IMG/VR virus record: IMGVR_UViG_3300029914_000004
Source: a virus
Lineage: Duplodnaviria > Heunggongvirae > Uroviricota > Caudoviricetes
Length of the DNA stretch: 64,000 nucleotides
Strand: one strand, 5' to 3'
Positions within the stretch are counted from its first letter, which is position 1. Each line of letters opens with the position of its first letter. A program made the translations under genes and the position numbers. This document shows positions 34,643 through 46,540 of the stretch, piece after piece. The notes below the pieces were generated by a model, which was not told where the DNA came from, made no database searches, and saw only the letters and a program-made list of their open reading frames with translations.

Positions 34643-35652
34643 ATGAAGAAATTATTTCAAACATTATATGGGTCATCTTTGTATGGAACAGCCACAGCTA
34701 ATTCTGACATAGACATCAAGGTTATTATTCTTCCTTCTTTAGATGATTTATTGCTAGGAATTTCTCCCAAGAATAAAGTCAAAAACAATAATAAAAAGTT
34801 TGGAGAAAAAAACACTGCTGAAAACATTGATATTGAGGAAATTCCATTACATATGTTTGCTAAAGATTTTATGGAAGGACAATCTTATGCAATTGAGTTA
34901 GCTTTCGCAGTTGAATGTGTTGATGCTGAACAAGCAATTTACGATGGAAGATTTCCAAAATTTGTTTCAGAATTAAGAAGTAAATTTTTGACTTCAAATA
35001 TTTTTGCTATTTGTGGTTATAGTTTGCATCAGGCGAATCTATATTCTGATAAAGGCGATAGATTGTGCGCTGCTTTTGAAGCTGAAAAATTGTATTCTGA
35101 ATTTCCACTATTGGATAAAATTTCAGATCATTCTGAAAACTTCAATAAAGAGGCAAATATTGTTCAGAATAAATTTCCTAAATATTTTCAAGTGACTGAA
35201 TATGCAGTTGACGCAACCAAAACTGTAATGCGCCCATGCGTTAAACTTCTTGAAAAGACTCTTCCATATTCAAATACTTTTGAAACAAACCTTGCAACTA
35301 TCAAAAAGCAGATTGGAAAGTTTGGTACAAGAGCCAAAGCCGCTTCTCTATCTGGCGCAGACTGGAAGGCAATTTCTCATAGTTTGAGAATTGTAAATGA
35401 AGGAATTGAGTTGCTTTCTGGAAAAAATTGATATATCCATATCCTAAAGAATATTGTGAATATCTGCTTAGTATTAAGCGCGGAGAACATTCAATTGAAG
35501 AAATTTCTGCCTTAATTAGTGATGGAGTTGATAAATTGAAAACTTTGTCTTTGAGTTCTAAATTGCCTGAATGCAATGCAGAACTTACAGAAAAATTCAA
35601 TATTTGGTTTTTGGAATGGTTGAAGAAATTTTACAGTTTGAAGGATTGTTGA
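34643..35652 (+). CDS. Pol-beta-superfamily nucleotidyltransferase (RlaP/PF10127-like), split by a -1 frameshift
   Basis: YGSSLYGT....SDID motif; ORFs 34643-35431 and 35428-35652 join at the A6 run 35422-35427. Confidence 0.7.
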
Positions 35653-35846
35653 CATTTCTTCTAGATTGTGGTATACTAATTATGAAAGGATTATATGACT
35701 AGTGCAACAGATTTCTATTTCAAGATTGACAAAGGCACTTTTTATTTTCCAATTATAAGCGAAGAAATTTCTTTTGATTTGGAAGATATAATGGCTTTCG
35801 CAGAAGCATATGCAAAATATGTAATTGAAGAGAAAGAAGGAAAATA

Positions 35847-36833
35847 ATGACTCCTGATTATGGAATAATTTGCGGCAGATTTCAGATACCAGAGTTGCAT
35901 GATGGCCACAGAGCATTGCTCAATGCTGTTGGGCAGTTGCATCCTAGAGTAATTGTATTCATTGGATGTGTTCCTGCTGGTGTGGCACCGACAAAAAATG
36001 ATCCTCTTGATTTTGATACCCGCCGACGGATGGTTCAACAGTTGTATCCAAGTTATGAAGTGTATCCAATTCATAATCGCAAGAGTGATGAACTATGGAG
36101 CGCAGATTTGGATCGACTAATTACTGAAAGAGTTCCATATGGAAAAGCAACATTGTATGGAAGTCGAGACAGTTTTGCTAAGAGTTACACTGGAAAGCGT
36201 AAAGTTGTTGAATTGACACTGGCTGTTTCCAGAAATATTTCTGGAACTGATTTGAGAAATGAAATTGCGAATGTGGTGCAGGACAGTCCAGCATTCCGAG
36301 CAGGAATTATTTATGGACAGTTGAACACGTTTGATCGCGTTATACCCACAGTTGATATTGCGATTATTCATCGAGGACTTCCAAAAATTGATGGAGTATC
36401 CAAAAATGATAACGGCGATACATACGTTGTAAATCCAACATGCGGGATTGAACTTCTGTTGGCAAAACGAGCAGATGAAGCTGGCTGGAGATTTCCTGGT
36501 GGTCACGCTATGGGGAAAAATCGCCCGCAGAATCAGAGCTATGAACACGATGCAAATATGGAAAGTTACGAGGAAACAGCAAGCTATCCTGAAAATTTGA
36601 AGTATATTGGAAGCACCCAGATTGATGATTGGCGTTATAAGGACACCCCTGAATCTATTAAAACTGTTTTCTTTCTTGGCGAAGTTATGACATTGGCAAG
36701 TGTTGGAGGAGATGATATTGCTACAACACGATTCTTCCCAATTGAAAAAGTAAGTGAAGAAATGTTTGAGCCAGAACATAAAATATTATTCAATATGTTA
36801 ATGAATTATTTAAAGAAGGAAAAGTATTTATAG
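35847..36833 (+). CDS. bifunctional NMN adenylyltransferase / Nudix hydrolase (NadM-Nudix type)
   Basis: GRFQ..ELHDGH, NDPLDFDTR, YGSRDSF, ISGT.LR; C-terminal Nudix box WRFPGG...ESYEET and GGDDI. Confidence 0.9.
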   Translation: MTPDYGIICGRFQIPELHDGHRALLNAVGQLHPRVIVFIGCVPAGVAPTKNDPLDFDTRRRMVQQLYPSYEVYPIHNRKSDELWSADLDRLITERVPYGKATLYGSRDSFAKSYTGKRKVVELTLAVSRNISGTDLRNEIANVVQDSPAFRAGIIYGQLNTFDRVIPTVDIAIIHRGLPKIDGVSKNDNGDTYVVNPTCGIELLLAKRADEAGWRFPGGHAMGKNRPQNQSYEHDANMESYEETASYPENLKYIGSTQIDDWRYKDTPESIKTVFFLGEVMTLASVGGDDIATTRFFPIEKVSEEMFEPEHKILFNMLMNYLKKEKYL

Positions 36834-36868
36834 TGCAGCAGTAAGTGAAATTATTGAAAGTCTAGAAG

Positions 36869-37054
36869 ATGAAAGAAATCTCTGATAAAGAAAAGAAAAT
36901 TTATTTAAAATTCTGTGATTGGGATATTGGACCAAAAAATTATTATTCTGGCCCTGCATATTATATTCATCCTGATACAACCAAATTTATGTTTATTGAT
37001 AATGCTTTCAATTATCAAATGCAATTGGATGGGCACGATGAAATATCCAAGTAA
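36869..37054 (+). CDS. small protein, tandem paralogue 1
   Basis: KIYLKFCDW...AFNYQMQLDG. Confidence 0.55.
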   Translation: MKEISDKEKKIYLKFCDWDIGPKNYYSGPAYYIHPDTTKFMFIDNAFNYQMQLDGHDEISK

Positions 37055-37241
37055 AGAAGAAATGAAAATTTACTTAAAATTTTGTGGATGGTGGGAATTA
37101 AATAATGATGAGTGGTTTCCTATTCCTTTATTGTTTCCGCCAAATCCAGAGCCAAGCGAAGCTACTGGATTTTACACAATTTTAGAAGCATTTAAATGGC
37201 AAATGAAAAAAGATGGGCAACTTGACAATTTAGACCAATAA
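37038..37241 (+). CDS. small protein, tandem paralogue 2
   Basis: KIYLKFCGW...AFKWQMKKDG. Confidence 0.55.
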   Translation: MKYPSKEEMKIYLKFCGWWELNNDEWFPIPLLFPPNPEPSEATGFYTILEAFKWQMKKDGQLDNLDQ

Positions 37242-37276
37242 TGATATACTAAGAACATAGAAAAAGGAGATTCAAA

Positions 37277-38695
37277 ATGCCGAGGCCGCTCGTAATTAAC
37301 CCACTTTTAGACGATGATAGTTATAAAAAAACTCACCCAAAAATGCTTCCAGATAATTTAACTGAGGCAATGAATTATTATTGTAATCGCGGAGGAATTT
37401 ATAGCGAAGCTGTGTTTTTTGGTCTTCAGTATCAGTTAATCTCTGAATTTGAAGGGAAGTTTTTCACTCAGGAAAATCTTGATGAAGCATATGCAGATAG
37501 CCAGATTCATTTTTATGATGGATTTCCTTATCCTAAAGAACAGTGGCAGTATATATTAGACAAATATGATGGAAGATTGCCTATTGAAATTAAAGCCATC
37601 AAAGAAGGACAGCCATTTAATATCTCCAATGATGGAGTAAATACTGTTGTATTTACAGTAGAAAGTACTGATGAAAAATGTGCATGGCTCCCAGGATGGT
37701 GCGAAACTCGTTTAATGCGTAATTGGTATGGTAGTATTGTTGCTACTCAGAGTCGAGAAGTTAAAAAATTGGCCAAGGAATATTTGACATTAACGGCTGA
37801 TTCTTATAATTCTCTTCCATTTATGTTGCATGATTTTGGAGGTAGAGCAGTATCTTGTACTCATCAGGCTGCACTCGGAGGCGCGGCTCATCTTATTAAT
37901 TTTAAAGGAACTGATACTGGAATTGCTATGAGTCTTTTGCATCAGTATTATGATGCACCACGAGTTTCTGCTTATAGCGTTCCTGCTTCTGAACATTTTG
38001 TTATGACTATGGAAGGACCAGAAGGAGAAAGAAGTGTAACTGGAAGAATTCTTGGAGTATATAAAGATGCTCCAATCGTAAGTATTGTTATTGATAGTTA
38101 TGATGATGAATATTTTGTTCGTGAAATTCTTGGTGGGACATTTCGTGACCAGATTTTACATGGAAAGAGCAAAATTGTTGCAAGACCTGATTCTGGCGAT
38201 CCAGAAATTAAAGTTCCAATTCTTTTGAATATCCTTGGTGATAGATTTGGTTATACCATCAATAACAAAGGATTCAAAGTTTTGAGCCCTTGTGTTGGCA
38301 TTCTTTGGGGAGATGGAATGGATATTTTTAGTATTCGCAAATTATATGAAGCTTTGCGTCTTGCTGGGTGGAGTGTTGAAAATACTGTAGTTGGAATGGG
38401 TGGCGGTTTATTACAGAAAATTAATCGAGATACGAGTCGAGCCGCGATGAAATTTTGTAATATTGTTTTAAATGGAGTAGATACACCAGTGTATAAAAAA
38501 CCAAAAGATGATCCATTCAAAGCCAGCTTTGCTGGAAGGCCAGCATTGGTTTATAGTGAAGCAACTGGTTTATATAGAACGGTTAAAGATAATGGAAATG
38601 GAGTATATGGAAATTGTCTTGAATTGGTTTTTAGAAACGGAAAAGTTCTTCGTCATCAGACATTGGAAGAAATTCGTCAGTTGGCTGATGTATAA
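37277..38695 (+). CDS. nadV: nicotinamide phosphoribosyltransferase (NAMPT)
   Basis: DSYKKTH, FFGLQY, LHDFGGR, GGAAHL.NFKGTD, SVPASEH, SIVIDSYD, RPDSGDP, GDG, GMGGGLLQK..RDT. Confidence 0.95.
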   Translation: MPRPLVINPLLDDDSYKKTHPKMLPDNLTEAMNYYCNRGGIYSEAVFFGLQYQLISEFEGKFFTQENLDEAYADSQIHFYDGFPYPKEQWQYILDKYDGRLPIEIKAIKEGQPFNISNDGVNTVVFTVESTDEKCAWLPGWCETRLMRNWYGSIVATQSREVKKLAKEYLTLTADSYNSLPFMLHDFGGRAVSCTHQAALGGAAHLINFKGTDTGIAMSLLHQYYDAPRVSAYSVPASEHFVMTMEGPEGERSVTGRILGVYKDAPIVSIVIDSYDDEYFVREILGGTFRDQILHGKSKIVARPDSGDPEIKVPILLNILGDRFGYTINNKGFKVLSPCVGILWGDGMDIFSIRKLYEALRLAGWSVENTVVGMGGGLLQKINRDTSRAAMKFCNIVLNGVDTPVYKKPKDDPFKASFAGRPALVYSEATGLYRTVKDNGNGVYGNCLELVFRNGKVLRHQTLEEIRQLADV

Positions 38696-38770
38696 TTGCC
38701 AGAATAAAGTGGTAACGCTATTGGTGTTAAGATTGACAGCGGATTCTTAGGAAACTTGGAGGAAAAATAA

Positions 38771-38950
38771 ATGCACCCTTATGACCAGCTAGTAAAGGAT
38801 ATGCTTGCTTGGGTGCATGAGCAAAGCACACCTAAATGTTCGTGGTGCGAAAGACAATTCGCTGTTAGTCAAGGTTTTTGCTCTCAGAACTGCTGCAACG
38901 AACAAAGAGAATACGAACGTAAGCACGGTATTGCAGCCGATACTCTGTAA
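38771..38950 (+). CDS. 59-aa Zn-finger-like protein (CxxC...FCS..C)
   Basis: below ORF-track cutoff; GGAGG RBS; CSWC, FCSQNC. Confidence 0.55.
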   Translation: MHPYDQLVKDMLAWVHEQSTPKCSWCERQFAVSQGFCSQNCCNEQREYERKHGIAADTL

Positions 38951-38979
38951 GGTATCACTGAATGTATTAAAATAATTTT

Positions 38980-39129
38980 GGCTAGGCCAGTCTTCAGAGA
39001 TTGGCTCTCTGATCGCAGTTGCTGACGGCAGAGTGACATAATATAGAGGGGTTCATACATAAAATCCTTGCAACAGGAAAAGATATGGATGAGTATATAA
39101 AGATGGTTAAACTCCATCCCTAGCCACCA
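38980..39129 (+). ncRNA. 150-nt tRNA-like RNA candidate with 7-bp acceptor and ACCA end
   Basis: GGCTAGG/CCTAGCC-ACCA enclosing several hairpins. Confidence 0.5.
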
Positions 39130-39147
39130 AATTTATAAAGGAAAAAT

Positions 39148-39345
39148 ATGAAATTTATACCAAACTATTCAAAGGCCCCAGACATTGGCGAAGAAAAGAT
39201 TAAGAGAAAATTTATAATTTTTCCTCGCCAATGCCCAATGACTGGGACATATTATTTTCTGCAAACTTGCACATTTCACTATAAATATGGCTCATTTTGT
39301 AGCGATACCAATGATTATTGGTATCTAGTAAAAATTACTGATTAA
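39148..39345 (+). CDS. small protein, paralogue of 39791
   Basis: F..FP..CPM.GT.Y.L. Confidence 0.55.
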   Translation: MKFIPNYSKAPDIGEEKIKRKFIIFPRQCPMTGTYYFLQTCTFHYKYGSFCSDTNDYWYLVKITD

Positions 39346-39358
39346 GAAAGGCAAAATT

Positions 39359-39577
39359 ATGATGTGTAATTCATGTGGAAGCATAAGAATATTGGAAGTA
39401 TCTGGAAAAGTTTCAGATGCGTGTTTTATTACTTTTGCAAATGAGGAGCATGATGGATATGTTCCTTATAATTTAAGAATTGGAGGCGGGGATTATTTAG
39501 AATTTAATCTCTGTATGGAGTGTGGGAAAGTGCAAGGAAAATTTCCAGTTGCTGAAGTGAATCTTGAAGGAAGATAA
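39359..39577 (+). CDS. small Zn-ribbon protein
   Basis: CNSCGS...CMECGKVQG. Confidence 0.6.
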   Translation: MMCNSCGSIRILEVSGKVSDACFITFANEEHDGYVPYNLRIGGGDYLEFNLCMECGKVQGKFPVAEVNLEGR

Positions 39578-39790
39578 GAAATTAACTATGATTTCGCTGA
39601 GCCCTCAATTGTGGCTGCCGTTTTATAGAAGAAATAAAGATGGAACTATTGTATTTAATGGTTCTATTGGTTGTTTAACAGATGATTGTAAATACTGGAA
39701 TGATAAAAGTTGTAATCCAGGAGTTAAAGACAATAATCCAGATTTATGTAAATTGCCACAAGATCCTTGGTGGCCAGATTGGAGTAAATT

Positions 39791-40006
39791 ATGAGATGGA
39801 AAGCACAAAAGAATATAAAAATTGGAACAGTTAGAATATTTCATCATTTTGCACTTTTTCCTATAACTTGCCCAATGAGTGGCACTACTTATTGGTTGGA
39901 ATGGGTTAATGTTTCTCAACAAATGGATTGCCCTCTTAAATGGGATTCTATAGGATTTAAGAATGATAATAGCAAAAAATATTGGAAAGTAGTTAAAATA
40001 AATTAG
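39791..40006 (+). CDS. small protein, paralogue of 39148
   Basis: FALFPITCPMSGTTYWL. Confidence 0.55.
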   Translation: MRWKAQKNIKIGTVRIFHHFALFPITCPMSGTTYWLEWVNVSQQMDCPLKWDSIGFKNDNSKKYWKVVKIN

Positions 40007-40335
40007 GAGAATTATGAATTATTGGATAATTATTATTCCAACAGTTGAAACATTTGTTTTCTATGGATGGGAAAGAGAAGCATTTTTTGAAACTGAGAAT
40101 AAATCAAAATGGTATAATGTTAAAGGAAAATATAAACTTGCAGATAAAAAAGATCCCAAAGATTTTGAAATGGTTCAATTGGAAATCATAGGATCGCAGC
40201 AAGATAGAAAAGCGCAATCTGATATTCCTTATATGCCAAGAGAGGGATGGTTTTAAATGATTAAGTGGGAGATAAATATTTTAAAATAATTTTGCATTTA
40301 TTAAAAATTTACAAATTCTCAGGATAAATAAATAT

Positions 40336-40509
40336 ATGAAGAGCATGATTACAACTGATACAATTTCTAAAAATATTTTACGAGAAGTGAAATATGATGC
40401 TACAGGAAATGTTATTACTAATGGAGAATTTATTACAGTGAAAGACGGCGGGCAAATATTAAATCAAAATAAATTTGCAGCCGCTGATAAATTCGGAGTA
40501 TATTTGTAA
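40336..40509 (+). CDS. 57-aa late-type ORF
   Basis: TAAATA just upstream; followed by terminator-like hairpin. Confidence 0.4.
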   Translation: MKSMITTDTISKNILREVKYDATGNVITNGEFITVKDGGQILNQNKFAAADKFGVYL

Positions 40510-40669
40510 ACGCCAGGATTCAAAAAGATTTAAAAGATCCTGGCGAAAGTCAGGATCTTTCATTTGCAGTAAAGAATAGTTATCCGTTCCGCTTCACGTT
40601 AACCGAGCACTCTTTATAAAGAGAATGGAAAATATCAAAGATAACTATAATGTAGTAAAAATGTTTTAT

Positions 40670-40744
40670 GGGGCAGTAGCTCAGAGGGAGAGCGCTGCGT
40701 TAGCATCGCAGAGGTCGAGATTTCAAAATTCTCCTGCTCCACCA
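40670..40744 (+). tRNA. tRNA-Ala(AGC)
   Basis: acceptor GGGGCAG/CTGCTCC with G3:U70, ACCA; stem CTGCG/CGCAG, loop TT-AGC-AT. Confidence 0.85.
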
Positions 40745-40818
40745 TAAAGTTTTTGCTTGGGGTGGTTACTTATTTGACAGATTTATATAAACGAATTAAA
40801 GATTGGAATGAAAAATAT

Positions 40819-40893
40819 GGGGAATAAGTGTTGATAGGAGCACGATAGATTCGCAATTTATAAGGGTGAGGGCAGTTCTCACATTCTCCACAA
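40819..40893 (+). tRNA. tRNA-Ala(CGC), non-canonical T-loop
   Basis: GGGGAAT/ATTCTCC with G3:U70; loop TT-CGC-AA; T-loop GGCAGTT. Confidence 0.7.
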
Positions 40894-40971
40894 GTTATTG
40901 AAAATAAAGCACTTATTTTTTACTTGACAAATGATCTAGAATTTAGTATTATTAAAGAGTAGCAAGAATAT

Positions 40972-41064
40972 GGGCTATGGGGCTGCTAGGGTGGCCACTG
41001 GTTTTGCACTCCAGAATCATCGAGAAATCGATACAGCGGGATTCAAATTCCCGATAGTCCACCA
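40972..41064 (+). tRNA. tRNA-Ala(TGC) with long variable arm
   Basis: GGGCTAT/ATAGTCC with G3:U70, ACCA; loop TT-TGC-AC; 22-nt variable arm. Confidence 0.8.
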
Positions 41065-41075
41065 AAAAATTTAGG

Positions 41076-41104
41076 TTGACAAACAAAGTAAAGTTTGATA
41101 GTAT
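41076..41104 (+). promoter_or_regulatory. sigma70-type promoter driving the ncRNA/tRNA run
   Basis: TTGACA-N17-TAGTAT. Confidence 0.7.
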
Positions 41105-41119
41105 AAAAGAGTAGCAAGA

Positions 41120-41522
41120 AATTGGTGCAACACAGCACGAAGTAGCACTCCAAATGCAGCGAATGAGAATTCGTTCAACAGATGGACAGACACATAATGT
41201 TTACTTGTAAAAGTGTTCTGACCTTAACGTGCCTGCGATAGTGAGTTGAATGGTGAAATGCCAGAAGAAAGTTCACCAGCCAATGAAGTTTAAAAATCGC
41301 TTTAGTAGCGATCTGATAGTAAATCAGTTCAGGAAGTATTTGACAATTGAAGAGAATATTGCAGAGCAACAGTGCTCTGTTTGAATATGAAAGTTACACC
41401 CGCCTACGTGGCAGTCCTAACTGAGACAGCATCACGACTTCAGGTGGCACGATGGTTGTAACGGGGCAAGCTTTCAGACTAATTAACAATTAGCGGCTGC
41501 GTACTGCCCGTAAAGTACGCAT
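41120..41522 (+). ncRNA. about 400-nt structured ncRNA candidate
   Basis: no credible ORF; many hairpins (GCGAAT/ATTCGT, GGTGAA/TTCACC, ATCGCT/AGCGAT, CAGAGCA/TGCTCTG, TGAAAG/CTTTCA, TGCGTACT/AGTACGCA). Confidence 0.65.
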
Positions 41523-41541
41523 AAAGTTTTGAAGTAAATAT

Positions 41542-41627
41542 GCCGTAATGGTGGAACGGAATACACTTTGGACTTAAAATCCAACGCTCTTATGAGATTG
41601 AGGGTTCAAATCCCTCTTACGGCACCA
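41542..41627 (+). tRNA. tRNA-Leu(TAA), class II
   Basis: TTGGA-CTTAAAA-TCCAA; long variable arm; ACCA. Confidence 0.9.
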
Positions 41628-41638
41628 AAAAGTTTAGT

Positions 41639-41756
41639 AGATCAATAGCTCAATTGGTTAGAGCAACGAGATTAACAGATCAAGTCGTAAAGCCACAAGC
41701 CTAAGATACTTGAAGTCACTCGTCGGTTGAAGGTTCGAGTCCTTCTTGATTTACTA
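41639..41756 (+). tRNA. tRNA, probably Leu(TAA), with 41-nt anticodon-loop insert
   Basis: intact D and T arms, stem ACGAG/CTCGT, 48-nt loop 41671-41718. Confidence 0.65.
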
Positions 41757-41767
41757 GAAAAGTTTAA

Positions 41768-41880
41768 CTCTGAGTCGCAAGACTATCGAAGTGACTAGGA
41801 AACTAGCTGGCATAACGAAATATTATGTTGGACCTTGAGAGTGACCACAGATGAATCTCAGTGAAAGCTAGAGATTTCAG
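41768..41880 (+). ncRNA. multi-hairpin spacer RNA candidate
   Basis: GTC-GCAA-GAC, CTAG-GAAA-CTAG, CATAAC/TTATG hairpins; CTGAG/CTCAG long-range pairing. Confidence 0.35.
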
Positions 41881-41894
41881 AGTTATAAAGTTTT

Positions 41895-41971
41895 GCCGCG
41901 TTCGTATAACGGATTATTATGCTCCGCCTTTAACGGAATCGATATGGGTTCAAATCCCATGCGCGGCACCA
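41895..41971 (+). tRNA. tRNA-Lys(TTT), C33
   Basis: loop CC-TTT-AA; GCCGCGT/GCGCGGC, ACCA. Confidence 0.75.
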
Positions 41972-41985
41972 AAGTTTAGATGTAT

Positions 41986-42062
41986 GCGTTCGTCGTATAG
42001 CGGCTTATTATACTTGTCTCTTAAACAAGCTGACGTGAGTTCAAATCTCACCGAACGCACCA
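41986..42062 (+). tRNA. tRNA-Lys(CTT)
   Basis: CTTGT-CTCTTAA-ACAAG; ACCA. Confidence 0.9.
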
Positions 42063-42078
42063 AAAGTTTTATAGTTAT

Positions 42079-42198
42079 GAGATTGTAGCTCAATTGGTAG
42101 AGCAACGCCCTTTTTTCGGGATGCTTCTTTGAGAGAGCATTCGATGGATGCTTTCAAAAAGGCGCAGGTTGTGGGTTCGATTCCCACCAGTCTCACAA
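42079..42198 (+). tRNA. tRNA-Lys(TTT) with 44-nt anticodon-loop insert
   Basis: GAGATTG/CAGTCTC; CT-TTT[insert about 42115-42158]AA. Confidence 0.7.
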
Positions 42199-42250
42199 AG
42201 ATTTGAAATTAAAACCATCTTCGCATAAATAAAGATGGAGGATCAATTAA

Positions 42251-42865
42251 ATGCCATTAGTAAATTGTCCAAAATGTAATACTGAATTTGAGAATAAAGG
42301 AAAATGGGGAACCAAAAAATTTTGTAGTAGAAAATGTGCCAATTCAAAAGATCGGCCACAAGAGTTAAGAGATAGAGTTTCTAAAAAATTAAAAGGAAGA
42401 ATTGGAAAAAGTATTTTTCTTTCTCCAGAGAAACTCATAAGTCGTAATCTTAAACTTAGAAAAACTTGGGATTTAAAATATGAGAATATTCCATTTGAAG
42501 AACTTTCTTGGGATTTACAAAGATTGCGAGTAATAAAAGAACAAAATAATTCTTGCGGAAAATGTGAAATTACTGAATGGTTTGAAAATCCAATAACTTT
42601 AGAAGTTGATCATATAGATGGAAACCGAAAGAATAATTGTAGAGAAAATTTAATTGCTATTTGTCCAAATTGTCATAGTATTACTACAACATGGCGCGGA
42701 AGAAATAGAAAAACTGTGGATTATAAAACTGATGAAGAAATTTTAAATGTTATTTTACAAACTGAAAATATTCATCAAGCATTAAAATTTCTAAATATGG
42801 CATGTCGAGGAGCCAATTATAAAAGATTACAACAGTTAATGGAAAAAAATAATATCTCTTACTAA
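42251..42865 (+). CDS. HNH homing endonuclease with N-terminal FCS..C Zn finger
   Basis: CPKC, FCSRKCAN, CGKC, LEVDHIDGN..NN.RENL..ICPNCHS; TAAATA upstream. Confidence 0.9.
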   Translation: MPLVNCPKCNTEFENKGKWGTKKFCSRKCANSKDRPQELRDRVSKKLKGRIGKSIFLSPEKLISRNLKLRKTWDLKYENIPFEELSWDLQRLRVIKEQNNSCGKCEITEWFENPITLEVDHIDGNRKNNCRENLIAICPNCHSITTTWRGRNRKTVDYKTDEEILNVILQTENIHQALKFLNMACRGANYKRLQQLMEKNNISY

Positions 42866-42871
42866 ATTTAT

Positions 42872-42976
42872 AGCCGTATAGCTCAATTGGTTCAGAGCAT
42901 TCCCCTTATTTAGGGCCTGTGCATCAGACCTTAAATAAGGGAAAGGTTGATGGTTCGATCCCATCTACGGCTACCA
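42872..42976 (+). tRNA. tRNA-Ile(TAT) with 27-nt anticodon-loop insert
   Basis: AGCCGTA/TACGGCT-ACCA; stem TTCCC/GGGAA; 34-nt loop 42905-42938. Confidence 0.75.
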
Positions 42977-42990
42977 CAAAGTTTAAATGT

Positions 42991-43051
42991 TGGCTTGTAG
43001 CATAATTGGCAATGTGTGACCCTGTTAAGGTCAAAGATGATGGTCCAGCCA
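42991..43051 (+). pseudogene. T-arm-deleted duplicate of tRNA-Asn(GTT)
   Basis: identical to 47275-47351 except GTTCGAGTCCCTCTGAG is replaced by T. Confidence 0.85.
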
Positions 43052-43062
43052 AAATTTAAAGT

Positions 43063-43181
43063 TTCGCTGTAGGGAAAATATACCCCGCTGCATGAGGCAG
43101 AAAGATATTGAGGGGCTGGTCAACGGCTATAGACGCCCAGTGAGTAAATATTTGATGGTGCAAATCCATCCGGCGATACCA
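43063..43181 (+). tRNA. tRNA-like element with shrunken anticodon loop and very large variable insert
   Basis: acceptor TCGCTG/CGGCGA + ACCA, T arm GATGG-TGCAAAT-CCATC, CTGC-ATGAG-GCAG arm. Confidence 0.5.
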
Positions 43182-43188
43182 ATTTTAT

Positions 43189-43323
43189 GGGATGGTAGCT
43201 CAGTAGAAGAGCAATGGCTATGAGGGGTAGTCTAGCGACGGTTAGATGAGACTCAAGTGCAAAAGTCATACGTCGAGAAGTCTGAAGGCCAAGGACATTG
43301 TGCAAATCCCTCTCATCCCATCA
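43189..43323 (+). tRNA. degenerate tRNA-like element with about 60-nt anticodon-loop insert
   Basis: GGGATGG/TCATCCC, D arm GCTC..GAGC, TGGC/GCCA stem; T stem poorly paired. Confidence 0.4.
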
Positions 43324-43395
43324 ATTTTAAAGAAAAGATGTTGGGTTCAATGGTCCGACTTCAAACTAACGTTAAGTCAAGTTTGAATAGTTTAA

Positions 43396-43469
43396 GCGGG
43401 GATAGTTTAAATAGTAGAATATCTGAGTTTCCGCTCAGAAGATGGGTTGCAAGTACCCTAACCGCTCCA
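43396..43469 (+). tRNA. degenerate tRNA-Gly(TCC)
   Basis: CTGAG-TTTCCG-CTCAG (6-nt loop); two acceptor mismatches; TCCA. Confidence 0.5.
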
Positions 43470-43480
43470 ATTTTATATAT

Positions 43481-43565
43481 GCGGGAGAAGCCTACTTGGT
43501 ATGGCACTGGTCTTCCAAACCAGAGATGAAAATCGCTGCGAGTTCAAATCTCGTCTCCCGCTCCA
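43481..43565 (+). tRNA. tRNA-Gly(TCC) with long variable arm
   Basis: GCGGGAG/CTCCCGC-TCCA; CT-TCC-AA; 14-nt variable arm. Confidence 0.9.
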
Positions 43566-43845
43566 TATTTATACATATGGAATAAAGGAAGAAAATTAAA
43601 ATGAAATATTGGTGTAAAAATTGTGAACATCTTCTGCCATTGAAGAACAATGAAAGAACAGAAAATTTCAAAGAATGGTGGATAGAAAATCGAGAACAAT
43701 TCAGAGAACTGCATCTCAATGGAGAGTGTGAAATAAAAACAACTCAGATACAGAAGGTGAATTTATATGCATAAACTTTTGTTTTTCTTAGCATTTGTTA
43801 TAATTGTATTTGTGGTGCATATGTTGAAGTGTAAATAAAGTTTGT

Positions 43846-43916
43846 CGCGGGGTGCAGGTTGCCGTTTCAGGCTCATAACCTTGAAATGTACGTGAGTTTC
43901 GATACTCCCTCCGCAT
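43846..43916 (+). tRNA. degenerate initiator-like tRNA-Met(CAT)
   Basis: CGCGGGG/CTCCGCA with C1:A72 mismatch, CT-CAT-AA; shortened D arm; no CCA. Confidence 0.45.
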
Positions 43917-43967
43917 CTTTTGAGCAGACACGCCGCCATGTTAATAACAAAAGATGCGTGTGAAAGT

Positions 43968-44190
43968 TTAAAATAATAATTTTTTAATTTCCTCAAATGC
44001 AGTATCAGGAGAATAAACACCATCATTAAATGATAAAACTTCCCAACCCGAATTTGTCAATTCTTTGATTTTTATTTTATCTCTGTTTTGAACTTGTTTT
44101 AAAGAAAAATTTTTAATTTTTAGTTGTTTGTAATGCCATGGTCCATTCCAAAGAATAGCAACTTTATAATCATCAAGAATAATTGTTTTG
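43968..44190 (-). pseudogene. inverted remnant of a Vsr/DUF559-like endonuclease C-terminus
   Basis: IILDDYKVAILWNGPWHY...QNRDKIK...GW.V; no credible N-terminus. Confidence 0.5.
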
Positions 44191-44304
44191 CATTGAAACC
44201 TCATATAAATAAAGATATGGCAGGACAAACTTGCAAAACCTCACAAGTGAACAAATATTCACAAGATATTTGTTCTTGCTGCCAATAGTATTTATCTTTA
44301 TTAA

Positions 44305-44375
44305 GGCACAGACAAGGATTTGCGCTCACCCTCATAAAGTGGTGCGAGTGGGATTATTCCCCACCTGTGCCACCA
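44305..44375 (+). tRNA. tRNA(CAT) Met/Ile2 with truncated D arm
   Basis: GGCACAG/CTGTGCC-ACCA; CT-CAT-AA; T-loop ATTATTC. Confidence 0.55.
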
Positions 44376-44757
44376 AAAATAACTAGGAGTTATCAAATGG
44401 CTTATTTACTTAAAAAAGGATATAAAATAGACAAAGGGATCAGAATATATGATAATGAAGAATCATTATTGCCTTGGTGTGATTTTAAAAATTGTAATAC
44501 ATTGGCGTCTCATAATGCTGATCAATATGTTGAGTTAAAATGCAATAAATGGTAGAATTGGTTATCATATCCAAAATTTTTATGCAAAGAACAGGAATTA
44601 ATGGGATGTGATCATCATCCAGTATCTTCAGAAATTGTTTATTTGGATGGACATTCAGAATTTTTTATTAAAATTCCACAAACAAGATGGCATAAACATA
44701 AATATGAGTTTATATTAGCTTTGATTTTTGCGGTACTTTGTGCGATAATTATTTAAG

Positions 44758-44786
44758 TTGACAAAAGATTTTAAAAGTTGTATAGT
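44758..44786 (+). promoter_or_regulatory. sigma70-type promoter
   Basis: TTGACA-N17-TATAGT. Confidence 0.8.
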
Positions 44787-44798
44787 AAAAGAATAGAG

Positions 44799-44869
44799 AT
44801 TTGCAGCACGCCGTAAATGTCTTATGACCTACCTCCAATTTGTTATAGACAACGATTCGTGTTGCAAAT
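44799..44869 (+). ncRNA. small three-way-junction RNA candidate
   Basis: ATTTGCAGCACG/CGTGTTGCAAAT closing stem with two inner hairpins. Confidence 0.45.
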
Positions 44870-44892
44870 AAAAGATATTGGTATAATGAGTA

Positions 44893-44963
44893 GTGCTTGT
44901 AGCTCAGTGGTAGAGCAGCCCCATTAAGAGGGCTGGTCGTTGGTTCGATTCCAACCAAGTATC
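44893..44963 (+). tRNA. tRNA, probably Leu(TAA) short-arm; anticodon uncertain
   Basis: canonical D and T arms; GCCCC-ATTAAGA-GGGCT with one mismatch; no CCA. Confidence 0.55.
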
Positions 44964-45058
44964 AAAGTTATACTAGGCGCAGATAGACCATAATTGGTTC
45001 GCGGCCATGTTGGGAACGTCTCGTGAAATCCATCGCGCCCGCGATCTGAAGTAAAGTT

Positions 45059-45213
45059 TGTGTTAGTTGCTGTATTATTAGCCGAAGGAGCAAGAGCACC
45101 AGATGGAAAACTGGAGATTTGGCATTACGCCAACCAATTGCGTAATGTGTCTGTGATCTAGCTAGGCGAGATGGGATTATCACTATTGGTAGATAACTCC
45201 ACTGACTAACACA
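45059..45213 (+). ncRNA. 155-nt multibranch RNA candidate
   Basis: TGTGTTAGT/ACTAACACA closing stem; CATTACGC/GCGTAATG, CCAG/CTGG, GTGAT/ATCAC helices. Confidence 0.5.
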
Positions 45214-45245
45214 ATTAGATATTAAAAAAAGTAGTGTCGCTGTAA

Positions 45246-45311
45246 GTATAATGTCGTCTAATGGAAGGATAGCGTGAACGCAAGATGCGAGTTCGACTCT
45301 CGCCTTATACT
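45246..45311 (+). ncRNA. tRNA-like RNA lacking an anticodon loop
   Basis: acceptor GTATAA/TTATAC, D-loop TAATGG, perfect T arm GCGAG-TTCGACT-CTCGC, anticodon arm only GCG-TGAA-CGC. Confidence 0.6.
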
Positions 45312-45368
45312 GAAGACACTTGAGAGTTTTCTTTAAACGAAAACTCTCCGCGATTAGTAATACAAGTA

Positions 45369-45478
45369 TGAAATGTCTGACTTGAAGCGCTCTCTGGCAA
45401 GGGCGTAAAGGCCAGATCGATGCAATATCCAAAGGCCAGAGTGCTGATGGAAGTGCAAAGTTCAAGTCAGACATTTCA
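45369..45478 (+). ncRNA. 110-nt rod-like RNA closed by a perfect 18-bp stem
   Basis: TGAAATGTCTGACTTGAA/TTCAAGTCAGACATTTCA; inner CTCTGGC/GCCAGAG. Confidence 0.55.
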
Positions 45479-45489
45479 GTAATTTTATC

Positions 45490-45615
45490 GGGGAGAAACT
45501 ATAGAGTTAGCTATAATGGGGAGAACTAAAGCGATGGCTGGCGATGGCCCAGAAGGAGCTACTTTAGTTTTATGATCTAGAAATAGTTGCTGGTTTCAAC
45601 ACTAGCGCCCCGCCA
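45490..45615 (+). ncRNA. CCA-ended tRNA-mimic candidate
   Basis: GGGG/CCCC-G-CCA; T-like arm GCTGGT-TTCAAC-ACTAGC; AACTAAAG/CTTTAGTT helix. Confidence 0.45.
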
Positions 45616-45698
45616 ATTTAGTAGTGACATTTGTTAGGCAGAGGTTAACGGTTTAGGGCACTCTGCCTGATGATGGAAAGAAATATACTAAAAAGACT

Positions 45699-45911
45699 GT
45701 GCCGAACGAAATATATGAAGCACTACTTGAATATATTGAAGAGTACAACCTTGATTGTGCTGACAATTTTCGATATTCTCCAAAAAATGATCCAGAAGGA
45801 ATGGATGAATATTTAACTATTTCTCAACGTGGGTGTTGTGGTCGTGCTGACTTTTTAGCATGGGAAAATAATGGGCAAGAGTGGGTTATTGGTTGTAATT
45901 ATGGACATTAA
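45699..45911 (+). CDS. small hypothetical protein
   Basis: GCCG..D...G..W.IGCNYGH. Confidence 0.55.
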   Translation: MPNEIYEALLEYIEEYNLDCADNFRYSPKNDPEGMDEYLTISQRGCCGRADFLAWENNGQEWVIGCNYGH

Positions 45912-45931
45912 ATTTAACAAAAAAGGAAAAT

Positions 45932-46450
45932 ATGATCACATTAGAACAATGGTTAAAAGCAATTAAGTATAGAATCACTGAGGGATCAGATTATAATTGG
46001 GAAAGCTATGGACCAAATGCATATAGTTTGGATTATTGGGATCAACTCCACAATGGAGTTGACACTTCAATAATTATCGATAAATTAACTGGAATTGTTT
46101 ATCAATGCGAAGTTTGTGATTATGAAAAGAATGTTGCATATCGCATTATCAATCCAGCCTTTAAAGACAGTCATATTGGAGAAGCTGAGCAGAAAAATCT
46201 TGATCATGGTTATGTTGATGAAGCTTGGGAAAATGTTCCATATTGTGACTCAGAAGTTGATGATTTCCTAGAGAAACTACATGCCATTGTCAATCATGAA
46301 TCATACGATACTCGTTCAAGTGTTTCACTAGATTTAGATGAAAAAACAACATTTACATTGATGAAGATGGCGCATGAAAAAGATATAACTTTTAATCAAT
46401 TAATTTGTAATATTTTAAACGAGGTGTTTTTGAATCCAAATACAACATAA
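45932..46450 (+). CDS. conserved phage protein
   Basis: MITLEQW..AI.YRITEGS.Y.W; C-terminal L..L.KMAHE.DITFNQ. Confidence 0.7.
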   Translation: MITLEQWLKAIKYRITEGSDYNWESYGPNAYSLDYWDQLHNGVDTSIIIDKLTGIVYQCEVCDYEKNVAYRIINPAFKDSHIGEAEQKNLDHGYVDEAWENVPYCDSEVDDFLEKLHAIVNHESYDTRSSVSLDLDEKTTFTLMKMAHEKDITFNQLICNILNEVFLNPNTT

Positions 46451-46462
46451 CTAGATTTATAT

Positions 46463-46540
46463 GGCTCTATAGCTTAATTAGATTAAAGCACTTCACCGTC
46501 AATGAAGGAGATGGGGATGCAACTTCCCTTGGAGCCGCCA
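46463..46540 (+). tRNA. tRNA-Asp(GTC), C33
   Basis: CTTCA-CCGTCAA-TGAAG; G73, CCA. Confidence 0.85.

Follow-up and report, generated by a model that had tools for sequence, protein, structure and literature searches.

The tRNA gene cluster of phage T4 also encodes two stable RNAs, species 1 and species 2, of about 120-140 nt and with tRNA-like ends, which are co-transcribed with the tRNAs and cut from the same precursor. The locus described here, which lies in the tRNA array of a peat phage, can be compared to these RNAs and to two other kinds of RNA encoded by phages. GOLLD and ROOL are phage non-coding RNAs that are often found near tRNA islands; GOLLD is conserved in its 3' region and variable in its 5' region (PMC12286853). 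Theta ribozymes, which are HDV-like, adjoin phage tRNAs, with a cleavage site within +/-5 nt of the tRNA end. They fold as a nested double pseudoknot and have a proposed role in the processing of tRNA precursors (PMC10879173).

We analyzed a window (the whole stretch of DNA under study, 64,000 nucleotides) that was taken from a 127-kb virus record in IMG/VR, where it spans bases 19536-83535. Since this record is estimated to be only ~49% complete in spite of its size, we regard the virus as a jumbo phage. Its sequence is present in many peat metagenome DNA runs. At least 24 tRNA genes were found on its plus strand between 40670 and 63914 (Rfam tRNA model, ARAGORN), several of them with inserts, and HNH genes and odd non-tRNA units lie in between. 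The largest non-tRNA gap of this array separates tRNA-Ala(UGC) (40972-41064) from tRNA-Leu(UAA) (41542-41627). An earlier note had described this gap as a highly structured RNA of about 400 nt with its own promoter, belonging to a class such as GOLLD and ROOL or to a new one. Our results favor a narrower reading, to which we give a probability of roughly 55%: positions 41111-41522 are the composite, non-coding first unit of a peat-phage tRNA operon, and a module of 93 nt within the unit is a rare and undescribed RNA motif. Judging by sequence comparison, this module is the only part of the 400-nt unit that counts as a selected RNA fold.

The array has several other unusual traits. A block of NAD-salvage type (34643-38695), located directly upstream, holds a nucleotidyltransferase-like ORF, an NMNAT-like plus NUDIX protein, and NAMPT. 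The tRNA-Ala(UGC) gene is 93 nt long, and its G3:U70 pair and long hairpin variable arm are unusual for tRNA-Ala; it has its own promoter, a twin of the one that precedes the unit. Three tRNA genes located further downstream (41639-41753, 42079-42195, and 42872-42973) are 102-117 nt long and have inserts of 27-47 nt in or near the anticodon loop, and the Rfam tRNA model spans each of them with a large insertion. The model that we made of the new motif (model R1) finds no similarity between the tRNA inserts of the array and the module. Unlike these inserts, the module sits outside tRNAs and its flanking stem, of 8 bp, is not an anticodon stem. A second non-tRNA unit of ~120 nt (41766-41886), with AAAGTTT at both edges, is found between one of the insert-bearing tRNAs and tRNA-Lys, and has no match in Rfam.

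The heptamer AAAGTTT is present in 41 copies on the plus strand versus 17 on the minus strand. It is found 0-3 nt after 13 of the tRNA 3' ends of the array, usually as CCA-AAAGTTT (examples at 41629, 41971, 42063, 52148, 53676, 63709, 63807, and 63914, in a span of 40746-63914). It also closes non-tRNA units, at 41523, 41887, 43058, 45053, 50026, and 50158. The closest phage to ours, G001, whose NAMPT has 85% amino-acid identity and whose tRNA array is partly syntenic and reshuffled, has the heptamer as well (L003 17523). AAAGTTT has the appearance of a signal for processing or punctuation in the array. As it occurs at 41523 just as it does at the tRNA ends, the stretch is laid out like a unit of the array (Table 1).

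In function, the closest likeness of the unit would be to the species 1 and species 2 RNAs of T4, as a small non-tRNA RNA within a phage tRNA cluster. This analogy is one of description and not of sequence and, unlike these RNAs, the unit has no CCA or acceptor-like end. With GOLLD and ROOL, the unit shares the location in a phage tRNA island, the encoding of a non-coding RNA by a phage, and the presence of a conserved and a variable part. With the theta ribozymes, the module shares the small structured RNA, the invariant core, and the phage tRNA locus.

Table 1. Features of the unit between tRNA-Ala(UGC) and tRNA-Leu(UAA), in positions of the window.
Feature	Position	Strand	Remark
Sigma70-type promoter, TTGACA-17-TAGTAT, TG before the -10	41076-41104	+	10 of 12 consensus matches; predicted by sequence
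Leader 14-mer AAGAGTAGCAAGAA	41107-41120	+	identical to the tRNA-Ala(UGC) leader, 40955-40968
5' part, lineage-specific string of hairpins, ~270 nt	41121-41385	+	no homologue found
Hairpins of the 5' part	41158-75 (GAGA loop), 41251-78, 41296-312, 41313-27, 41362-79	+	computed
15-mer TATTTGACAATTGAA	41337-41351	+	identical to two -35-like sites in the G001 tRNA array
93-nt irregular-hairpin module	41386-41478	+	sole part of the unit with comparative support
P1, 5' strand TGAAAGTT	41388-41395	+	pairs with 41469-41476
73-nt core	41396-41468	+	90.4% identical to L127
P1a	41399-402 with 41462-65	+	core helix
Core middle, model A	41407-10 with 41448-51	+	alternative pairing
Core middle, model B (RNAalifold structure)	41405-08 with 41457-60 and 41414-18 with 41446-50	+	alternative pairing
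P3	41421-25 with 41439-43	+	closes a 13-nt apical loop, 41426-38
P1, 3' strand AGCTTTCA	41469-41476	+	pairs with 41388-41395
Terminal hairpin	41479-93	+	pair probability 0.87
Terminal hairpin, 8-bp stem, then UAAAGUUUUG	41498-521	+	pair probability 0.93
AAAGTTT punctuation	41523-41529	+	19 nt before tRNA-Leu(UAA) at 41542

The module was discovered in a 162-nt Logan contig of the peat run X8, which matches the window, at about 90%, only in the 73 nt of the core. The flanks of this contig are unrelated to the window and yet pair with each other (TAGGAGAC before the core, GTCTCCTA after it). A full homologue was found on contigs L127 and L084 (metagenome pattern scan; nhmmer E 3.5e-16), and cmsearch with model R1 gave 119-120 bits. 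Nine further contigs, gathered from JGI, ENA, and Logan by exact-protein look-ups around the L127 module, have an identical module and add no variation. The L127 phage, an unrelated phage that also comes from peat, has a GC content of 50%, versus 33% here. The 90.4% identity of the core (over 73 nt) compares with 63-67% for the tRNA-Leu genes of the same anticodon in the L127 phage and in the window, and with 45-47% for the 60 nt on either side of the module. In L127 the module (1739-1831) follows a 70-aa ORF; after a further 82 nt, on the same strand, come a tRNA-like gene that has no anticodon and a Tyr/Leu tRNA array. In the window, the module is found 65 nt before tRNA-Leu(UAA). The comparative set thus consists of two independent sequences, one partial read-out (X8), and one truncated copy, in L133, a relative of the L127 phage in which the upstream flank and 37 nt from the start of the core are all that is left, at another position.

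Two observations concern these relatives. The tRNA-shaped gene directly downstream of the L127 module (1914-1983), called tRNA-??? by ARAGORN, has a 6-bp anticodon-arm stem capped by a UUAC tetraloop, and hence has no anticodon. The segment common to L133 (2151-2236) and L127 (1690-1775) is 86 nt long, 97.7% identical, and non-syntenic. It extends from the end of an ORF, across the upstream flank, through the first half of the module, and the L133 copy ends inside the module.

There is one copy of the module per genome according to model R1, which found no other copy in this phage, in the relatives G001 and G002, in 22 NAMPT-linked loci, or in the relatives of the L127 phage, five whole records included. 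A blastn search with the unit found no match among 50,697 phage records. In the closest relatives, G001 and G002, nhmmer and BLAST detected only the 15-mer TATTTGACAATTGAA, and no counterpart of the unit was found in G001. Scans with exact and degenerate patterns of viral contigs, metagenome contigs, and 185,579 species genomes returned chance matches or only L127, L084, and L133. In the same 185,579 genomes, 18-mers of the core occur only by chance, so a host origin of the motif was not detected. The NAMPT relatives taken from a large protein collection are on contigs that end short of any tRNA array. A literature search for sequence strings of the core retrieved no paper. The motif is missing in G001 and in relatives of the L127 phage, and is truncated in L133. 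Being so patchy in its distribution, it is dispensable.

The substitutions between the homologues are distributed in a way that fits an RNA fold. Of the eight pairs of P1, four changed on both sides between the window and L127, and the one pair lost in L127 is restored in the X8 version, in which TAGGAGAC and GTCTCCTA pair 8 out of 8. A U-A pair of P3 is replaced by C-G. For the middle of the module, models A and B provide equally good pairings: the change from C to U at 41450 is compensated by a change from G to A at 41408 in model A, or at 41414 in model B. In model B the G-U pair of 41408 also becomes A-U, and five of the seven core substitutions keep the pairing. The fraction of paired cells is 97.6-98%, versus 30-50% when the partners are slid by 1-3 columns. 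There are six compensatory pairs (four in P1, two inside the core), versus 0-1 in the slid controls, a level that ~10 of 500 column shuffles also attain. Since there are only two independent sequences, the covariation statistics are thin, and we regard the evidence for compensatory pairing as thin but coherent.

RNAalifold independently recovers P1, P1a, and P3. On the opposite strand, the G-U pairs 41425/41439 and 41394/41470 would turn into A-C mismatches, which fixes the RNA as plus-strand, like the tRNAs. In both independent sequences, P1, P1a, and P3 are thus kept by compensation, the loops are invariant, and the G-U pairs fit the plus strand. On thermodynamic grounds alone, this fold does not stand out: the z-score of the module on its own is -0.54, the comparative structure has energies of -16.9 and -20.9 kcal/mol versus minimum free energies (MFEs) of -25.3 and -27.8, and the helices of the module have a probability of 0.01-0.09 in the full-length ensemble. 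The long-range TGAAAG/CTTTCA helix proposed in the earlier note corresponds to P1, and it covaries. The proposed GTTAC/GTAAC helix has to be abandoned, as it overlaps and competes with P1, has a pair probability of 0.00, and cannot form in L127.

Judging by these comparisons, the closing stem of the module only has to pair, and the internal loops and the apical loop of 13 nt have hardly changed in sequence. A stem that can be rewritten provided that it still pairs, near-invariant loops, a core conserved above the level of the tRNAs, and the same setting in two unrelated phages make up a pattern that is typical of RNAs that act through their unpaired nucleotides, such as ribozymes, aptamers, and protein-binding sites. 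For this reason we read the stretch as a composite leader unit and the module as a new small structured motif. The proposal of a new class is thus supported, on limited but consistent comparative evidence, for the 93 nt of the module, which have a homologue with compensatory changes, and fails for the other 300 nt, for which our searches found no homologue, even in the closest relative.

The sequences upstream of the module suggest how the unit came about. The proposed sigma70 promoter is among the top three consensus matches in 38500-46500. As the total number of promoter-like sites in this region is not above that of shuffles, the call rests on the quality of the match and on its position. 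Transcription would start near 41111. Promoter and leader together (41076-41120) are a copy, 78% identical, of 40924-40968, located ahead of tRNA-Ala(UGC), where the twin promoter is at 40924-40952. The leader 14-mer is found in exactly two copies in the window. The 65 nt after the leader weakly resemble tRNA-Ala(UGC), from the anticodon loop through the long variable arm, a resemblance that is suggestive only (13 of 300 shuffles score equally). Within the 5' part, the 15-mer TATTTGACAATTGAA is found in G001 at L003 16324-16338 and 17459-17473, and one of these copies has TATTTA at a spacing of 17 nt. This suggests an array promoter box common to both phages that has apparently decayed in the window. 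As the site at 41337-51 has no usable -10, it is a possible promoter relic and, as such, a hint that the unit is composite and was assembled from cassettes.

The same observations are what one would expect if the region were a decayed duplicate of a promoter-tRNA cassette, with incidental hairpins and an RNA that is a mere 5' leader, degraded after cleavage by RNase P. The duplicated promoter and leader, the weakly tRNA-like sequence that follows, the promoter relic, the 270 nt at the 5' end with no homologue found, and the ordinary global z-score given below all fit this explanation. However, it accounts neither for the 90% conservation and the compensatory pairs of the module, nor for a GC content of 0.40-0.43 and perfect hairpins well above the level of the spacers. 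We regard it as rather unlikely for the region as a whole, and it could still be true for 41121-41385 alone. In our preferred reading of a composite unit, the ~300 nt outside the module may be lineage-specific accessory hairpins or cassette debris, and the 5' ~270 nt are perhaps in part the remains of a duplicated tRNA-Ala cassette and of an old promoter.

The conservation of the core might also result from transfer. The 73 nt could be a small mobile or recently exchanged element that landed in pre-existing hairpins or palindromes, so that the flanks are target sites and the element perhaps has no role for the phage. This would fit the presence of the core in two very different phages of the same habitat at an identity of 90%, when their tRNAs are at ~65%, as well as its patchy distribution, with one copy truncated and relocated. 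Contigs of the L127 lineage differ in their 3' flank right after P1, and the array of the phage is full of tRNA inserts and HNH genes, which also agrees with mobility. On the other hand, the two compensatory changes inside the core argue for a selected RNA fold and not only for transfer. We saw no transposase, target duplication, or terminal repeat, each genome has a single copy, and in both phages the module occupies the head of a tRNA array, in the same orientation. For P1, the chief competing explanation is that the core alone was recently transferred into palindromes, and this leaves the internal compensations unexplained. On balance, we find a mobile core unlikely.

The raised GC content of the unit (0.43, versus 0.33 in the window and 0.22-0.26 in the adjoining spacers) and its hairpins could instead point to a single ornate non-coding RNA of ~400 nt, a new class functionally like GOLLD and ROOL, of which the module would be the conserved core. 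The earlier note had listed clean helices, and clean local hairpins are indeed in excess: the unit has five perfect stems of at least 6 bp (6-8 bp) versus 0.95 +/- 0.95 in dinucleotide shuffles, of which only 2 in 500 have as many. In the full-length ensemble, four of the perfect hairpins pair with a probability of 0.87-0.96, as does the 7-bp hairpin with the GAGA loop. Among the hairpins of the 5' part, the values are 0.92-0.96 for four and 0.11 for 41313-27, and the sub-windows 41120-41200 and 41290-41385 have z-scores of about -2.2. At the 3' end, the hairpin 41498-521 with UAAAGUUUUG makes a weak terminator-like end, which was not called by the terminator scan. The promoter match, the end punctuation common to the array, and the location of GOLLD and ROOL near phage tRNA islands, together with the conserved 3' and variable 5' regions of GOLLD (PMC12286853), add to the case for a large RNA.

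The fold of the whole stretch speaks against it. The MFE z-score of 41110-41535 is -0.73, with 16 of 100 shuffles folding equally well or better, so that the description as highly structured does not hold for the unit as a whole. P1 is the sole supported long-range helix, the module is the only part common to the L127 phage (the flanks, at 45%, are unrelated), and a promoter-like 15-mer relic lies in the middle of the unit. Given the ordinary folding energy and the lack of the whole unit in the closest relative, G001, one large ornate RNA of 400 nt is unsupported. The differences from GOLLD and ROOL are also substantial. Their conserved part is of about 400-800 nt, versus 93 nt here, and the module is a single irregular hairpin with no supported pseudoknots or multi-way junctions. 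Instead of a large fold of several domains whose conservation extends over hundreds of nt, the unit has 93 conserved nt and no sign of a global fold. Membership in these families found no backing either: at E<=10, neither GOLLD (RF02032, gathering score 150 bits) nor ROOL (RF03087, 574 positions, gathering score 99 bits) had a match in the whole 127-kb record. For ROOL, the control genomes were also silent, so that the sensitivity of this search is unproven, but cmscan agrees with it. A large RNA of this kind is, in our view, quite unlikely.

The invariant core, the freely varying closing stem, the size of ~90 nt, and the tRNA-array context in two phages would also suit a catalytic RNA, self-cleaving or other, that takes part in cutting the tRNA precursor, for which the theta ribozymes provide a precedent in phage tRNA loci (PMC10879173). 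The position of the module is at odds with this analogy, since it lies 65 nt before tRNA-Leu in the window and 82 nt before the tRNA-like gene of L127, versus +/-5 nt for theta cleavage sites. Unlike the double pseudoknot of HDV-type ribozymes, the supported pairs of the module are all nested. Searches of 116 nt around the module, on both strands and at E<=10, gave 0 matches in Rfam, ribozyme families included (hammerhead, twister, twister-sister, pistol, hatchet, hairpin, and HDV-like models). A catalytic module therefore seems improbable.

The other searches for known families agree with the lack of tRNA-like ends and of RNase P and group I signatures reported previously. At the gathering thresholds of Rfam 15, only tRNAs were found in the window, and at E<=10 a search of 1.7 kb found nothing in 41120-41540. 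In the latter search and with ARAGORN, there was no match to bacterial RNase P RNA, tmRNA, or group I/II introns, only to tRNAs, and ARAGORN found no tmRNA. The comparison with Rfam by cmscan thus reveals no known family, and the novelty of the motif stands. We also considered and rejected, by eye and on the negative results of ARAGORN and Rfam, a degenerate tRNA, a permuted tRNA, tmRNA, RNase P, and SRP. A riboswitch with a terminator was rejected as well, as the hairpin and U-run after the module have no counterpart in L127. No complementary site of at least 9 nt to the invariant loops is common to both phages, which leaves the search for antisense targets negative. The repeated octamers GUCCUAAC (41414-21) and GUUGUAAC (41455-62) led us to consider the double T-loop dock of the tRNA elbow, which consists of two T-loops with invariant AG..A and UG..A cores (PMC3664808). 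Both octamers read U..UA, so that position 2 is not the G that such a loop requires, and the defining cores are not evident. There are further AGNNA/UGNNA triples, as expected by chance for patterns so short.

As the earlier note had concluded, the unit has no credible ORF. All six frames are interrupted by stops, and because each frame has stops of several kinds, an alternative genetic code that opens an ORF is ruled out. It is very improbable that the longest ORF (44 aa, 41250-41384), in spite of its ATG start and the weak GTGAG upstream, encodes a small protein: it has no homologue among 5.8 billion proteins, it is crossed by three perfect hairpins, it leaves the conserved module outside, and an ORF this long is expected by chance. 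Taken together, the promoter match, the non-coding character, the hairpins, and the TGAAAG/CTTTCA helix of the earlier description hold, and the global structure and the GTTAC/GTAAC helix do not.

Within the composite unit that we favor, a duplicated promoter and leader would be followed by ~270 nt of local hairpins, the 93-nt module, two end hairpins, and AAAGUUU. The unit would be transcribed together with the downstream tRNAs, and cleavage by RNase P at 41542, along with an unspecified activity at the AAAGUUU sites, would free it from the precursor. The module may then bind a specific partner through its invariant loops, and this partner might be a protein or an RNA of tRNA processing, of tRNA use, or of tRNA-directed host defence. 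We infer transcription, processing, and partner binding from the layout of the array and the pattern of conservation, and a processed partner-binding RNA is our best guess for the module. In the single peat RNA run that we examined, only tRNA-like contigs of other organisms were found, at 90-95% identity, and none covered the unit, which argues neither for nor against its expression; gaps in cover in DNA runs that share only part of the unit are equally neutral.

A more specific version of this idea is that the module represents a new functional RNA class of tRNA-rich phages, either a processing or self-cleaving ribozyme, or a binder or decoy for a tRNA or for a protein that handles tRNAs or targets them in defence. 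We consider it possible and put it forward tentatively. If it were true, selection would keep the loops of the module more conserved than the phages' own tRNAs. An identity of 90%, when tRNAs of the same anticodon drifted to ~65%, with a rewritten stem that still pairs, is the signature of a sequence-specific functional RNA. The tRNA islands of phages already hide unexplained RNAs, such as the stable RNAs of T4, GOLLD, ROOL, and the theta ribozymes. Our results temper the original claim, since the 400-nt unit is unsupported as one structured RNA, and they leave a module that, at 93 nt, is small enough for direct testing by synthesis, probing, cleavage, and pull-down. If this module binds a factor of tRNA processing or of anti-tRNA defence, it would be a new player in the contest between phages and their hosts over tRNAs.
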